From IMG/VR virus record IMGVR_UViG_2531839662_000023: a stretch of 26,750 nt of DNA; one strand, written 5' to 3'. Both the position numbers and the translations under genes were made by a program. The notes beneath the pieces are model-generated. The model ran no database searches and was not told the DNA's origin. It saw only the letters and a program-made list of their open reading frames with translations. The DNA is from a virus. Its lineage: Duplodnaviria; Heunggongvirae; Uroviricota; Caudoviricetes. Of this stretch, positions 1,981 through 22,068 are shown piece after piece (position 1 is the first letter of the stretch; each line of letters opens with the position of its first letter).

Positions 1981-2871
1981 TCAGGCTGCCAGATCATTGT
2001 TTCCGATGGAAGCATAATAAGCTTTTTCTGCTTCTGCCGGAGGAGTATGGCCCAGCCTTCCCAGCAATCGTCGATTGTTATACCAGTCCACCCACGTTAG
2101 TGTGGCCAGTTCCACTTCTGCACGGTTTTTCCAGCTCTTACGGTGTATTACCTCCGCTTTGTAAAGACCATTGATGCTCTCAGCCATCGCGTTGTCATAC
2201 GAGTCGCCTGTACTCCCTGTTGATGCCAGTAATCCGGCTTCTTTTAGTCGCTCCGTATAGGCCAGTGACACATACTGAGAGCCTTTATCGCTGTGATGGA
2301 TGGTGCCAGACGGACGACGGGCCCACAACGCCTGCTCCAGCGCATCCAGCACGAATGTCGTTTCCATAGACGATGAGACCCGCCACCCCACGATGTATCC
2401 GGCAAACACATCAATGATGAACGCCACATAGACGAAGCCCCGCCATGTGCTGACGTAAGTAAAATCAGCCACCCACAGCTGGTCAGGTCGTTCTGCCACG
2501 AACTGACGGTTTACGCGGTCGCCTGCGGCAACGGCTTTCCGGCTGATGGTCGTACGGACCTTTTTACCCCGGAGAACACCGGCAAGTCCCATAACCGCCA
2601 TGAGGCGCGCCACTGTACATCTGGCCACCCTGATTCCTTCCCGTAACAACTGACGCCAGACTTTACGCACACCGTACACCTGATGATTTTCATCGTATAC
2701 GCGCTGTATCTCTCTCTTCAGCCAGTCATCGTGCTGCGCACGGGCACTGCGTTTATCCGGATGATGTCGCTGTTGCTGACAATGGTAATACGTTGACGGG
2801 GCAATATGCAGTTCGCTGCATACCGGTCCGACCCCGTACTGCTCACGCAGCTTATCCAGCAGTGGCATCAT
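1981..2871 (-). CDS. IS3-family transposase OrfB (DDE integrase core)
   Basis: 296 aa with an rve-type DDE region (WVADFTYV...HHSDKGSQY...[10 protein letters not shown]). Overlaps orfA by 4 nt, the usual arrangement for programmed frameshifting in this family. Confidence 0.85.
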
Positions 2872-3194
2872 TTTTTCCAGAGGCGGTCGAACTCCGCCTT
2901 CGCAAAATAAGCGGAAGCCTGGCGAAGGATATCGTTACTGCGGCGCAGTTCACGATTTTCACGTTCCAGCTCTTTCAGACGCTGACGTTCAGCGCTGGTG
3001 AGCCCACCATCACCGCCCCCGGTATCCCGCTCATGCTGGCGAACCCAGACACGCAGAGTCTCCGGCGTACAGCCAATCTTTGGGGCAATGGAACAAATTG
3101 CCGCCCACTGTGAGTCATATTCATCCTGACTTTCCAGAACCATACGAATCGCCCGCTGACGGACTTCGGGGGAAAAACGAGTATTTTTAGTCAT
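2868..3194 (-). CDS. IS3-family transposase OrfA (HTH)
   Basis: 108 aa beginning [22 protein letters not shown] with a leucine-zipper-like C-terminus ([27 protein letters not shown]). Recalled as IS629/IS1203-type OrfA. Confidence 0.85.
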
Positions 3195-3268: not shown

Positions 3269-3949
3269 TCATCGCCATTGCTCCCCAAATACAAAACCAA
3301 TTTCAGCCAGTGCCTCGTCCATTTTTTCGATGAACTCCGGCACCATCTCGTCAAAACTCGCCATGTACTTTTCATTCCGCTCAATCACGACATAATGCAG
3401 GCCTTCACGCTTCATGCGCGGGTCATAGTTGGCAAAGTACCAGGCATCTTTTCGCGTCACCCACATGCTGTACTGCACCTGGGCCATGTAAGCCGATTTT
3501 ATTGCCTCGAAACCACCGAGCCGGAATTTCATGAAATCCCGGGAGGTAAACGGGCATTTCAGTTCAAGGCCGTTGCCGTCACTGCATAAACCATCGGGAG
3601 AGCAGGCGGTGCGCATACTTTCGTCGCGATAGATGATCGGGGATTCAGTAATATTCACGCCGGAAGTGAATTCAAACAGGGTTCTGGCGTCGTTCTCGTA
3701 CTGTTTTCCCCAGGCCAGCGCCTTAGCATTAACTTCCGGAGCCACACCGGTGCAAACCTCAGCCAGCAGGGTGTGGAAGTAGGACATTTTCATGTCAGGC
3801 CACTTCTTTCCTGAGCGGGGCTTTGCTATCACGTTGTGAACTTCTGAAGCGGTGATGACGCCGAGCCGTAATTTGTGCCATGCATCATCCCCCTGTTCGA
3901 CAGCTCTCACGTCGATCCCGGTACGCTGCAGGATAATGTCCGGTATCAT
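3269..3949 (-). CDS. exo: Lambda-type 5'-3' exonuclease (Red alpha)
   Basis: 226 aa, near-identical by recall to lambda Exo ([40 protein letters not shown]...GEQWR). Appears intact. Confidence 0.9.
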
Positions 3950-4326
3950 GCTGCCACCTTCTGCTCAGTGGCTTTCTGTTTCAGGAATCCAAGAGCTTTC
4001 ACTGCTTCGGCCTGTGTCAGTTCTGACGATGCGCGAATGTCGCGGCGAAATATCTGGGAACAGAGCGGCAATAAGTCGTCATCCCATGTTTTATCCAGGG
4101 CGATCAGCAGAGTGTTAATCTCCTGCATGGTTTCATCGTTAATGGCTTTTTTGCTGGCCCCGTGGCGTTGCAAATGATCGATGCATAGCGATTCAAACAG
4201 GTGCTGGGGCAGGCCTTTTTCCATGTCGTCTGCCAGTTCTGCCTCTTTCTCTTCACGGGCGATCTGCTGGTAGTAACGCGCCCAGCTCTGAGCCTCAAGA
4301 CGATCCTGAATGTAATAAGCGTTCAT
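3946..4326 (-). pseudogene. In-frame fusion of gam N-terminus to bet C-terminus
   Basis: Residues 1-60 match lambda GamS ([17 protein letters not shown]...[10 protein letters not shown]). Residues 61-126 match the lambda Bet C-terminus ([57 protein letters not shown]). Overlaps the exo start by 4 nt, as bet does in lambda. Confidence 0.7.
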
Positions 4327-4401
4327 GGCTGAACTCCTGAAAATGGCTGTGAAAATATCGCCCGCGAAATGCCAGGCTGATTAGGAAAACAGGAAAGGGG
4401 A

Positions 4402-4692
4402 TTAGCGATTCAGGCCGTTACCGCGTCCGTCGAGAAAAACTTCCACGAGCAAATCACGGGTATAAGTGCGCTCGATGCCGCGATGCAGATAAAGCCGTCC
4501 GCGTAAATTAGCTGATGCAGTCCAGGTACCATCTTTGTGTTTGACCAGCATTCCTGGCATGACCGCACCTCGATTAACGGTCTGCGTTCCGTAATGTTGA
4601 TGAACCATAAAAACTCCTGCCCGTAAGCTGGGCTGCTGAACATATAGAGACTTCTGCGCGTATTCAGGCGGTGGATGGCCGCCGGTTGTCAT
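4402..4692 (-). CDS. Hypothetical protein at the kil/cIII position; start uncertain
   Basis: Open frame ends 76 bp upstream of the gam start. Candidate starts are ATG at 4692 (GAGG about 10 nt upstream) and ATG at 4608 (AGGAG 5 nt upstream). The 136-aa track ORF begins at a TTG. No family recognised. Confidence 0.3.
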
Positions 4693-4885
4693 AACTAAGC
4701 CGCCTCGTTGAAGCGACTGAGGTATAAAGTGTTGTGTTGATTTCAGCTGGTCACACCGACGTTCACGCGTCCGTTTCACCCCTCGCACTCCCCGAAGCCT
4801 GCTGAAATTCAAACTGCGGATCTAAGCGGTCATCGCAACGGTGAAACAGGTGGTTACCGTATCGTTGTGTCGTTGCGATGAATTT

Positions 4886-4940
4886 ATTTAAAACTATAGT
4901 TGTTTTATCGTCAACAACAAAAGTTGTTTTATCGGTTGTT
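4886..4940 (-). promoter_or_regulatory. Candidate early-left promoter/operator (pL/oL-like)
   Basis: Cluster of GTTGTT/AACAAC hexamers (GTTGTT 4899-4904, AACAAC 4913-4918, GTTGTT 4923-4928 and 4935-4940) resembling the half-sites of the OR palindrome at 6430-6454. Minus-strand -35-like TTGTTG and -10-like TATAGT overlap them. Confidence 0.3.
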
Positions 4941-5049
4941 TTAAATATAACTGGTTGTATTTAGGATGGATTTATTTTGTGACTTGCATCGCATAGCGAT
5001 AACTGAAGTGAGGTGTGGTGGTTTTTTGGACGGTATGAGTTATGAGGGG

Positions 5050-5082
5050 GAGGAAAAGAAAACCCGGCGCGGTTGCCGGGTA
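5050..5082 (-). terminator. Rho-independent terminator downstream of the lipoprotein gene
   Basis: GC stem CCCGGC(5063-5068)/GCCGGG(5075-5080), followed on the minus strand by TTTTCTTTTCC, immediately 3' of the stop at 5089. Confidence 0.5.
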
Positions 5083-5088
5083 TGATTA

Positions 5089-5469
5089 TCAGTCAGCCCA
5101 ACCTGATTTCGAGTTTATTTGGGTTTCTGACATTGTGTATTTCTTAATCGTGTCATCGTTAAAAAGAATAGTAAGTTCTTTTTTCGTACCGTTCGTTCCG
5201 TTATGGAATAATCCATAGAATGGAATAAAAGTGGTGCCATTAACTTTTACTTTTGCAAAGGCGTACTTCCAGATCTCCTTTCCACTGTCAGTATATGAAA
5301 CAGCATCAGGAGAACCAAAGTAAGATTTAACCTCATTCTTGGTTGTTTTACCTTCCTGAAGTTTAGACTGGACACTAATTTCAGTTTCATTTTTGAGTTG
5401 CTGGTTGCCTGAAGAAGCACACCCAGCCAATACAGATGCCATCATGGCAGCGATTAGGATTTTTCTCAT
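5089..5469 (-). CDS. Predicted lipoprotein, BamE/SmpA-OmlA-like fold
   Basis: 126 aa with signal peptide and lipobox MRKILIAAMMASVLAG-C. Mature region resembles the BamE fold (KLQEGKTTKNEVKSYFGSPD...WKYAF...LTILFNDD). Sits between cI and the early-left genes, where lambda carries rexAB. Confidence 0.6.
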   Translation of the reverse strand: MRKILIAAMMASVLAGCASSGNQQLKNETEISVQSKLQEGKTTKNEVKSYFGSPDAVSYTDSGKEIWKYAFAKVKVNGTTFIPFYGLFHNGTNGTKKELTILFNDDTIKKYTMSETQINSKSGWAD

Positions 5470-5698
5470 TTTATGTTTCCATTCATTATAATCAGAAACA
5501 TCTTAACATAATGATTCGAAATAAAAACCGCTACGAGATAGGGAGACATTTTGCTGACAGTAGCAACAAATCTCAGCTAACAACGAGAATATTTACTGAA
5601 ATATGCAAACAGATTTGGCGTTCTTATAGAGAATTTAGTGCAATATCTAATCCGAGTGGTATAAACCTTAACCTTCGCTCCCTTAAGTCGTAGATAAA

Positions 5699-6388
5699 TT
5701 AACCATGCTTCCTGTACGTCTGCGGCATGCTTCCAATGACCTTACCGAATATGAACACCCGGTTCATCTCGTCTTTCTCGATCGGGTCCCACGGCGAGTA
5801 GCTCTTGTTATCAGAGATAACCAGCAGCTTATCCTTCATCATTTGAAGACGTTTTACATGGGCAGTGTCGTCGTACAGAAACGCATAGATGCCATCACCG
5901 TCGAAAGATTTAACAGTGATATCAACGAACAGCAGGTCACCTGGTTCGATCGTCCCTGACATGCTGTCACCTCGCACGTTAATGATGCGGATATTTTCCG
6001 CCTTCCTGCCATCGAACATGTGACGAGCATCGTCAAACGAGTACTCAACCGAGCGTAGAACTTCTACAAACTCACGGTTGATTACACCTGGCCCGGCACT
6101 GACTTCTATATCAAGAACGTCAATTTTGAAGTATTTGGAATGGCTGACAGTTGATTGTATTGGTTGCACTGTACTGTCTGACATATTTCCAACGCCAGAA
6201 GATAACCATTCTGCGCGTACACCCAAAGCGTTCGCGATCTCCACGATTTTAGTTGTTTGGTTAGCTTTCCCTGTTTCGATTTTCTGAATAGCAGCCTGGC
6301 TAACCCCGACCAAATCCCCAAGCGCCTTTTGTGTAAGGCCTCGCGCTAATCTGGCTTCTTTAAGTCTTTCTGAGAGTGTTGTTTTCAT
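5699..6388 (-). CDS. cI: CI-type phage repressor (HTH_XRE plus S24 LexA-like peptidase)
   Basis: 229 aa. N-terminal HTH (LTQKALGDLVGVSQAAIQKIETGK) and C-terminal S24 autoproteolysis domain (GDSMSGTIEPGDLLFVD...KRL). Divergent from the cro-like gene. Confidence 0.85.
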   Translation of the reverse strand: MKTTLSERLKEARLARGLTQKALGDLVGVSQAAIQKIETGKANQTTKIVEIANALGVRAEWLSSGVGNMSDSTVQPIQSTVSHSKYFKIDVLDIEVSAGPGVINREFVEVLRSVEYSFDDARHMFDGRKAENIRIINVRGDSMSGTIEPGDLLFVDITVKSFDGDGIYAFLYDDTAHVKRLQMMKDKLLVISDNKSYSPWDPIEKDEMNRVFIFGKVIGSMPQTYRKHG

Positions 6389-6429
6389 AGATCAAATGTA
6401 CAACCAAGGTTTTATTTCATCAAACGAAA

Positions 6430-6454
6430 ATGGTTGTTGACTAAAAACAACCAT
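6430..6454. promoter_or_regulatory. OR operator: 25-bp perfect palindrome overlapping the rightward promoter
   Basis: ATGGTTGTT-gactaaa-AACAACCAT is a perfect inverted repeat. The -35-like TTGACT (6437-6442) lies inside it and a GGAGG RBS precedes cro at 6493. Confidence 0.55.
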
Positions 6455-6492
6455 AGTTTTAATCTTGATTCGGATTAACCACGGAGGTTGTT

Positions 6493-6723: not shown

Positions 6724-6792
6724 ATTTCCATTTCACGCTCTTTAACAATAAGCAATCAACTTAACAGTCAATTCAAACTAAAGGAGTCAATT

Positions 6793-12862: not shown

Positions 12863-13326
12863 ATAATGATCTCGGATTTTAAGTTATGCTATGGTGATAA
12901 AGTGCAAGACAGAATTAATTATCTTTGACGAAACTTAATGGGTAATTACTTTGTTTGCTCCCACAAGCGAGTTTTGTACGGCTGTATTGGGGTAGTAAAT
13001 GAGCTATACAATCTTAATCATTTGTTAGGTGAGAACTCTTGGTCGCAGATTCAAATACTGAAAATACGTGACAAATTATTATGAGCAAAATGGTGTATGT
13101 CACGTATTTTGAATGGTAGGTTAAAAAATAACACCGACTTTCGTAGGTGTTACTAATAATAAAGCAGAGTTTTTAGATAGTATCAATGTGCTTTGTGTAT
13201 ATTGTGGCAAATAATTGGGTTGGGGGTACAATTGTGATTGCTTTTGCATGAACATTGCGCCTTTATGCATAATGAGATAAAGGAATATCAAATAAAATAA
13301 CGATAGGTCATAACAAAGAGGTTTTT

Positions 13327-21849: not shown

Positions 21850-22068
21850 GGGTCCTTTCCGGCGATCCGACAGGTTACGGGGCGGCGACCTCGCGGGTTT
21901 TCGCTATTTATGAAAATTTTCCGGTTTAAGGCGTTTCCGTTCTTCTTCGTCATAACTTAATGTTTTTATTTAAAATACCCTCTGAAAAGAAAGGAAACGA
22001 CAGGTGCTGAAAGCGAGCTTTTTGGCCTCTGTCGTTTCCTTTCTCTGTTTTTGTCCGTGGAATGAACA
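21850..22068 (+). other. cos site (cosQ-cosN-cosB), lambda type
   Basis: Near-identical by recall to the lambda genome termini. cosN 12-nt cohesive-end sequence GGGCGGCGACCT at 21880-21891, followed by CGCGGGTTTTCGCTATTTATGAAAATTTTCCGG... up to the Nu1 start. Confidence 0.75.

Follow-up and report, generated by a model that had tools for sequence, protein, structure and literature searches.

Predicted hairpins in the untranslated kil leader of an N-less DLP12-like prophage

The window analysed here, a 26,750-nt stretch of DNA that constitutes IMG/VR virus record IMGVR_UViG_2531839662_000023, is, judging from its sequence, a DLP12-like lambdoid prophage located at argU (tRNA-Arg) with intD adjoining, in Escherichia coli UMNF18. 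The genome of this strain matches the 711 nt surrounding kil and its leader at 100%. On the minus strand the genes are ordered int, an IS3-family insertion, exo, a gam::bet fusion, kil, roughly 480 nt of intergenic sequence, a lipoprotein gene and an S24/HTH cI-type repressor, and the plus-strand genes that come next are cro-like, YdaT/CII-like, O and P. Neither the ORF list nor the annotation contains an N gene or ORF between the cI-type repressor and kil. The features of the locus are collected in Table 1.

The gam-derived ORF, which starts at 4326 and is separated from the kil stop codon by 75 nt, is an in-frame gam::bet fusion (3946-4326, minus strand) of approximately the first 64 residues of Gam and the last 60 of Bet. 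A deletion made this fusion, with the loss of most of both genes, and RefSeq represents the region as two partial pseudogenes. The IS3-family insertion sequence (1981-3194, minus strand) lies between the small genes on the xis side and exo, and it carries a programmed-frameshift pseudoknot (Rfam ALIL, 121 bits). On the other side of kil, between the repressor gene and pL, a gene at 5089-5469 (minus strand) encodes a 126-aa lipoprotein of unassigned function (PHROG 3135) with a weak BamE-like match, and the gene is provided with a strong intrinsic terminator (5062-5081). Different genes occupy this spot in other immunity classes, and rexAB hold the corresponding position in lambda; the lipoprotein gene is probably a moron expressed in the lysogen. 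The window also has two long perfect inverted repeats far from kil. The first is a 13-nt repeat at 13061-13110 (AAATACGTGACA... / ...TGTCACGTATTT), whose loop measures 24 nt; two plus-strand ORFs flank the gap, about 460 nt wide, in which it lies. The second, a 16-nt repeat at 21988-22044, is situated just upstream of the start of a lambda-like Nu1 gene (ATGGAAG...) and matches the lambda cos region; it is presumably a known structure of the packaging region and not a new one.

The small ORF upstream of gam is a true gene at the kil position, as the preliminary description had supposed, and it can be placed in a family that had gone unrecognized there. The profile search of the translations that had been proposed as a check recovers PHROG 294 ("Kil protein for bacterial septation inhibition") at E = 3.1e-38 and the NCBIfam KilR model NF008465 at E = 1.8e-16 (59.9 bits, profile positions 1-67 of 73). 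The latter score does not reach the curated cut-off of 92 bits, and Pfam has no model for the ORF. BLASTP alignments that begin at residue 1 relate the product to Rac KilR (36% identity, E = 9e-13) and to phi80 Kil (40% identity, E = 5e-15). RefSeq annotates a CDS at exactly 4402-4608 on the minus strand as a "phage encoded cell division inhibitor protein" (WP_000233577.1). The product is of the size expected for this family, about 70 aa, and the gene has the expected location in an early-left operon beside recombination genes, here between pL and gam-bet-exo. The gene is almost certainly kil, coding for a presumptive cell-division (FtsZ) inhibitor of the KilR/phi80-Kil type from a diverged branch that is homologous to the narrowly defined Rac-KilR subfamily and lies outside it. 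Within the KilR/phi80-Kil family, only for Rac KilR has a block of the FtsZ ring with filamentation been demonstrated, and experiments show that it inhibits both cell division and elongation (PMC12482147, PMC5793797). Together with its leader, kil is present in 2239 of 5426 complete E. coli genomes (about 40%). It is an already known and annotated gene, and the gene itself is nothing new.

The minus-strand ORF that ends at 4402 is open from 4812, which would give 136 aa from a TTG codon, and its in-frame ATG codons at 4692 and 4608 would give 96 and 68 aa. Position 1 of the NF008465 profile falls on M69 of the 136-aa ORF, at which the 68-aa form starts. Among 68 distinct relatives, the variable columns within 4405-4608 are distributed over codon positions 1, 2 and 3 as 0/3/19, and those of the upstream in-frame extension (4609-4812) as 11/6/9, without codon periodicity. 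Relatives also carry indels of 1, 1 and 5 nt within this extension, and homology to genes of Citrobacter, Kluyvera, Enterobacter, Silvania and HK225 begins exactly at ATG 4608. The codon-position bias, the frame-breaking indels, the homology edge and the AGGAG in front of this ATG together identify the 68-aa form as the gene and 4609-4879 as its leader. Coding selection acts on the 68-aa form only, with the 96- and 136-aa extensions being noncoding leader, and phage records that give kil 96, 126 or 139 aa over-extend it. Both ATG codons had been put forward at the outset as starts with Shine-Dalgarno-like motifs. The proximal one stands, with its AGGAG and homology edge, and the distal one is unsupported, for want of codon bias and on account of the indels.

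A very remote alternative is that ATG 4692 is used after all, either for an extended Kil of 96 aa or for a leader peptide (MTTGGHPPP...) whose polyproline stretch stalls ribosomes to control kil. This codon is invariant in 41 variants of the leader, it is in frame with kil in the window, and MTTGGHPPP is the commonest reading among the variants. In every one of them, however, the AUG is base-paired within the hairpin SL3, and it has no properly spaced Shine-Dalgarno sequence. Indels of 1-2 nt between the ATG and the hairpin SL4 shift the frame in several variants (MNRRPSTA, MTPAAIHR, MKPAAIHR), the predicted peptides vary from 4 to >100 residues, and in HK225-type loci the ORF stops before kil. 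A conserved MTTGGHPPP leader peptide was therefore rejected on the grounds that the reading frame is not conserved.

Table 1. Features of the kil locus and copies of its SL3/SL4 hairpins (window positions unless another sequence is named)
Feature	Position	Strand	Basis or remarks
kil, 68 aa including the stop codon	4402-4608	-	PHROG, NCBIfam, RefSeq, codon-position bias
Shine-Dalgarno AGGAG	4614-4618	-	5 nt upstream of kil ATG; same in all close relatives
Untranslated pL-kil leader, about 271 nt	4609-4879	-	No periodicity (11/6/9), frame-breaking indels; start from promoter prediction
SL4, GGCGG-CCAUCCA-CCGCC	4667-4683	-	Travels with SL3; nearly invariant, 91.6% paired, little covariation
SL3, 15-16-bp hairpin	4689-4727	-	Covariation in 41 variants; covariance model 81 bits
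SL2, weak predicted stem-loop	4740-4808	-	Imperfect inverted repeat; fold z = -2.4
SL1, 11-bp stem, 30-nt loop	4830-4881	-	Inverted-repeat scan, fold; predicted 5' end of pL transcript
pL promoter, predicted	4886-4914	-	-35 TTGACG (4914-4909), 17-nt spacer, -10 TTAAAT (4891-4886)
Presumed OL, operator-like (A)AACAAC / GTTGTT repeats	4892-4960		Repeats common to cI-cro region 6400-6462; inference
Intrinsic terminator of cI-lipoprotein unit	5062-5081	-	Terminator scan: 7-bp stem, 6 GC pairs, then T-run; just upstream of pL
SL3/SL4 copy, phi80	L378 2471-2536		
SL3/SL4 copy, HK639	L376 2482-2547		
SL3/SL4 copy, HK225	L002 2495-2561		
SL3/SL4 diverged copy, HK022	L094 2439-2489		
SL3/SL4 diverged copy, lambda	L380 2475-2523		

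The start of the leader is set by a predicted pL promoter, downstream of whose -10 hexamer TTAAAT the minus strand reads AAATTCA|TCGCAACG. Positions 4888-4906 mirror positions 6444-6462 of the cI-cro intergenic region as an inverted repeat (19 nt, 95% match), and the operator-like repeats that the two regions have in common are specific to the immunity class of the window. The annotated pL of phi80 has the same layout and the same spacing between the -10 hexamer and ATCG, with a -10 hexamer TTTAAT followed by TACTCCA and then TCGAAAC. From this OL/OR mirror and the phi80 layout, we infer that pL transcription starts at about A4879, which would make the 5' arm of the inverted repeat flagged in the preliminary description the first nucleotides of the pL transcript. 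The early-left (pL) operon of this N-less prophage has kil as its first gene.

The leader has few recognizable landmarks. No boxA is present in it even when two mismatches are allowed, which bears out the earlier remark that no such motif is seen. The terminator scan finds neither an intrinsic terminator within the leader nor a strong one between pL and gam. BLAST finds no second copy or paralogue of the leader elsewhere in the window, and no similarity to the leaders of Rac, HK022, HK639 and phi80 beyond SL3/SL4. Rfam searches of the window at gathering thresholds, and of 4300-5750 at E <= 10, return only the IS3 ALIL pseudoknot and noise. Of the predicted stem-loops, SL2 was discarded as unsupported, because the consensus fold of the relatives draws another structure here and shows no covariation. 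Among other pL-kil leaders of Enterobacteriaceae, those of four IMG/VR prophages (L107, L134, L139 and L176) have a different structured segment of about 95 nt (ATCACCAAGACGCACC...GAGGTGGAGTGAT) right after pL and upstream of kil; this could be another cis-acting leader RNA.

The flagged hairpin, SL1, is exactly as first described. It has a perfect 11-bp stem (TCATCGCAACG at 4830-4840 and CGTTGCGATGA at 4871-4881), a 30-nt loop, and within this loop the sequence GGTTACC (4852-4858), which is specific to the window lineage; most relatives have GGCAACC. The 60-nt RNA around SL1 folds with a predicted energy of -19.2 kcal/mol (z = -4.4), and none of 200 shuffles is equally stable. When the whole window was dinucleotide-shuffled, 21% of the shuffles contained at least one perfect inverted repeat of 11 nt with its arms no more than 50 nt apart (mean 0.3), so the repeat alone is only moderately unusual. 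Taken by itself it is not beyond chance, and it is the position of SL1 and its retention in relatives that give it interest. Given the predicted transcription start, its stem would begin within 0-2 nt of the RNA 5' end, and the predicted pairing probability of nucleotides 1-6 is 0.97. The corresponding values in the three pL/operator classes of relatives are 0.97, 0.68 and 0.69, compared to 0.31-0.37 in shuffled sequences. A paired 5' end was rejected as a rule for pL-kil leaders in general, since type 1, L205, L107 and L139 leave nucleotides 1-6 unpaired. The same nucleotides of the HK022 leader are likewise unpaired under thermodynamic prediction.

The SL1 stem is retained in five pL contexts, though it is not proven by covariation. 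Among 23 variants, 86.6% of the pair cells are paired, compared to 14-53% when the partners are slid. Relatives fall into class A (the window type), class B (which includes Perceval and PhiR70_1) and class C (which includes O157:H7 strains), and a constant 3' arm and the stem are kept in all three. In class B the stem consists of seven Watson-Crick pairs plus wobble pairs. In class C homology breaks off at 4845, inside the SL1 loop, and a wholly different 30-nt loop follows; the 5' arm (AUUGCAUCG) still pairs, with one G.U and one mismatch. Two more pL contexts have loops of 37-38 nt; one forms 10 of 10 pairs and the other 10 of 11, the 3' arm having been fixed by the search pattern. No compensatory covariation is detected in the 23 variants, where a single pair has changed on both sides and shuffles equal this number. 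The commonest allele lacks the 11th pair, and three single sequences (L057, L074 and L018) have mismatches that are not repaired.

These observations also bear on whether the inverted repeat has any role as RNA. It might instead be a neutral by-product, namely a chance palindrome beside a promoter-proximal stretch under constraint, or else DNA to which a dimeric or looping protein binds, and we consider this pair of explanations somewhat unlikely. A chance expectation of 0.3 per window, the absence of covariation and the persistence of mismatched alleles all agree with it, as does CATCG at the start, whose conservation in unrelated leaders suggests a promoter constraint. Because CATCG is common to unrelated pL leaders, conservation of the 5' arm may in part reflect constraint on the promoter or initial transcribed sequence. 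The stem is nevertheless kept in five pL contexts even where the loop has been replaced or is 7-8 nt longer, and a spacing between the arms of 30 nt in some relatives and 37-38 nt in others speaks against a protein site of fixed geometry. The suggestion that the repeat is a protein-binding palindrome belongs to this somewhat unlikely pair. The arms are kept across immunity types, and since they are not immunity-type-specific, they are not cI/Cro operators.

Besides the protein-binding palindrome, a terminator and a nut/put-like RNA element had been offered as roles for SL1, and none of the three withstands the tests. As a terminator it lacks a U-run on the transcribed strand, where CCGCUUAGAUCC directly follows the stem on the minus strand; its loop is 30 nt, and the scan flags it on neither strand. 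A nut site requires a boxA (CGCTCTTTA-like), a boxB of about 15 nt and a cognate N, a combination that the leader lacks. There is no boxA and no N ORF, and SL1 is a 52-nt stem-loop, in contrast to the approximately 15 nt of boxB, located at the predicted start of the transcript. The window does contain one match to boxA, a perfect consensus (CGCTCTTTAACAA) at 6736-6748 on the plus strand, in the 69-nt gap between the cro-like and YdaT/CII-like genes that corresponds to the nutR position. No convincing boxB follows it. This boxA may have been left behind by an ancestor that had N, or it may work in the manner of the rrn elements and counter Rho with Nus factors only.

In the put-like function SL1, with or without SL2, would be a cis-acting antiterminator RNA of the HK022 put type that modifies RNA polymerase and thereby replaces the missing N. 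The phage has no N gene, SL1 occupies the predicted +1 with another predicted stem-loop behind it, and HK022 putL likewise starts at +3 of the pL transcript and consists of two stem-loops (PMC9378689). A covariance model that was built from HK022 putL, HK022 putR and HK639 putL gives scores of 63-99 bits for the sequences it was trained on, but it has no match in 4600-4900 at E <= 10, and BLAST shows no similarity between the leader and put loci. Rfam is silent on the put-bearing loci of HK022 and HK639, so its negative result is uninformative about put. No second copy of the element occurs in the window, and where a putR-like copy would be expected downstream of pR there is the consensus boxA instead, in a cro-cII gap whose own fold is weak (-3.7 kcal/mol, z = -0.24). 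A put site needs many particular residues in order to function (PMC9378689), yet the loop of SL1 is freely replaceable, as class C illustrates. SL2 is unsupported by relatives, and there is no strong intrinsic terminator between pL and gam whose suppression would be needed. We therefore view a put-like role as highly unlikely.

Farther downstream the leader contains a pair of hairpins, SL3 and SL4, that had not been flagged. The structure of SL3 is supported by strong covariation, better than that of SL1. Over 62 nt that correspond to this hairpin, the leader has 95% identity with HK225, although the kil genes are only 72% identical. The middle of the SL3 stem differs completely between phages with pairing kept (AGTCGC/GCGGCT, GGCAGA/TCTGCC, GGCTCA/TGAGCC, GAGTCA/TGGCTC and CACCGCA/TGCGGTC). 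In 41 variants 97.9% of the pair cells are paired, and seven pairs have changed on both sides (93 cells). The covariation score of 0.352 is reached by none of 500 shuffles (0.122), and slid controls give at most 0.083. When IMG/VR was scanned with a pattern that fixes only the flanks and the loop, the hairpin formed in 25 of the 27 distinct sequences recovered. The hairpin is capped by a tetraloop, UUCG or UACG, or by a triloop, and its base (UUAUA/UAUGA and UCAUA/UAUGA) buries the invariant in-frame AUG at 4692-4690. As a promoter SL3 was rejected for its hexamer spacing, which is wrong for sigma-70, and as a terminator it is not flagged by the scan. No T-run follows SL4 in the window.

The SL3/SL4 module is single-copy and always on the strand transcribed from pL. 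The SL3 covariance model scores 79-87 bits in phi80, HK639 and HK225, 25 bits in HK022 and 18 bits (E = 0.003) in lambda. In phi80 the module is directly 3' of the intrinsic terminator tL1A, after N, and in HK639 and HK225 it similarly follows tL1; in HK639 the SL4 hairpin together with a T-run is itself annotated as a terminator. The copies in lambda and HK022 are immediately upstream of the cIII ribosome-binding site. At its other locations SL3/SL4 comes directly after an intrinsic terminator, whereas the window has no upstream terminator and no cIII. We found no annotation or published function for the module in the region after tL1 or upstream of cIII, and Rfam does not contain it. We advance only tentatively that SL3/SL4 is an undescribed, widespread cis-regulatory RNA module at a fixed point of early-left operons, with SL1 as a second, promoter-proximal element of the same control. 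The module might direct processing of the RNA or affect its stability, or it might gate translation of the toxic or regulatory gene downstream. In work by Altuvia and Oppenheim, translation of lambda cIII is reported to depend on RNase III and mRNA structure, and SL3/SL4 could be the RNase III-responsive element long inferred there. For the same reason, the lambda copy is the obvious place for testing the function of the module.

It is known that 5'-terminal stem-loops of the ompA type stabilize E. coli mRNAs, and that RppH and RNase E act in a 5'-end-dependent manner. On this model, the most likely role of SL1, though at less than even odds, is that of a 5'-terminal stem-loop that stabilizes the early-left mRNA or organizes its leader. 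SL1 would make up the first 50 or so nucleotides of the pL leader, such that the RNA 5' end is base-paired from about +1, and it would shield the early-left mRNA from 5'-end-dependent decay by RppH and RNase E, nucleate folding of the leader, or both. Downstream, SL3 hides the upstream in-frame AUG, which fits with production of the 68-aa protein only, and kil is translated from ATG 4608 behind its strong AGGAG. For the joint interpretation, in which the gene is kil with an untranslated leader and SL1 is a 5'-terminal stabilizer, we judge the arguments for and against to be about evenly balanced.

The leader might also be a brake on the toxic kil gene, acting by Rho/NusG-dependent premature termination, by translational occlusion, or by both, with SL1 as one element of an attenuator. 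This is unlikely, and it is compatible with SL1 being a stabilizer stem-loop. The Rac homologue kilR is de-repressed when NusG falls (PMC5793797), and a small RNA, KilS, is annotated in its 5' UTR (PMC8175672). In the window, 271 nt of untranslated leader precede kil, an AUG is concealed within SL3, and part of the kil Shine-Dalgarno sequence coincides with a small stem of the predicted fold. The C/G ratio of its distal half reaches 1.7, which is mildly C-rich, but this rut-like composition is weak. The leader also has no sequence similarity to that of Rac and no intrinsic terminator that could release a small RNA, and strong polarity would be costly to a phage that needs gam, bet and exo, which come after kil. 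A Rho-based brake is possible, if unsupported.

The stabilizer interpretation of SL1 aside, the analysis fixes the anatomy of the locus, in that the true kil start is the ATG of the 68-aa form, and it describes the structured leader that precedes a toxic gene. It also shows that the early-left operon works without N, nut and put in the group of lambdoid phages to which the window belongs. The modest novelty is SL3/SL4, which lies within the coordinates originally flagged and is not the feature flagged there. It is a concrete candidate for an element that controls expression of cIII and kil after transcription, in the phage family that has been studied most.

Among known systems, the closest counterparts of this kil product are Rac KilR (73 aa) and phi80 Kil (69 aa), which compare with 68 aa here and are encoded at the same early-left position by the recombination genes. 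The surroundings differ, in that kil is the first gene after pL in the window, whereas phi80 kil follows N, tL1 and two small ORFs, and Rac kilR is behind the gene for the small RNA KilS. The latter is an Hfq-associated small RNA of the K-12 kilR 5' UTR (PMC8175672), and Rac kilR is silenced by Rho/NusG (PMC5793797). In the K-12 Rac prophage (L379 2406-2503, minus strand) KilS ends in an intrinsic terminator upstream of kilR. The KilS-bearing leader is a functional parallel to the present one without sequence similarity. Lambda Kil (47 aa) occupies the same slot just upstream of gam and has the same reported target, FtsZ and cell division.

SL1 itself can be compared with two kinds of RNA element. 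Like the put sites of HK022 and HK639, it is a stem-loop at most 3 nt from the pL start (predicted in the case of SL1) in a phage without N, but it differs from them in having no sequence or covariance-model similarity, no counterpart in the pR operon and a loop that can be replaced. With stabilizers of the ompA type it shares a long untranslated leader and a stem that begins no more than 2 nt from the 5' end, again as predicted for SL1. Its loop of 30 nt, which is partly structured, is unusually large for an element of this type.
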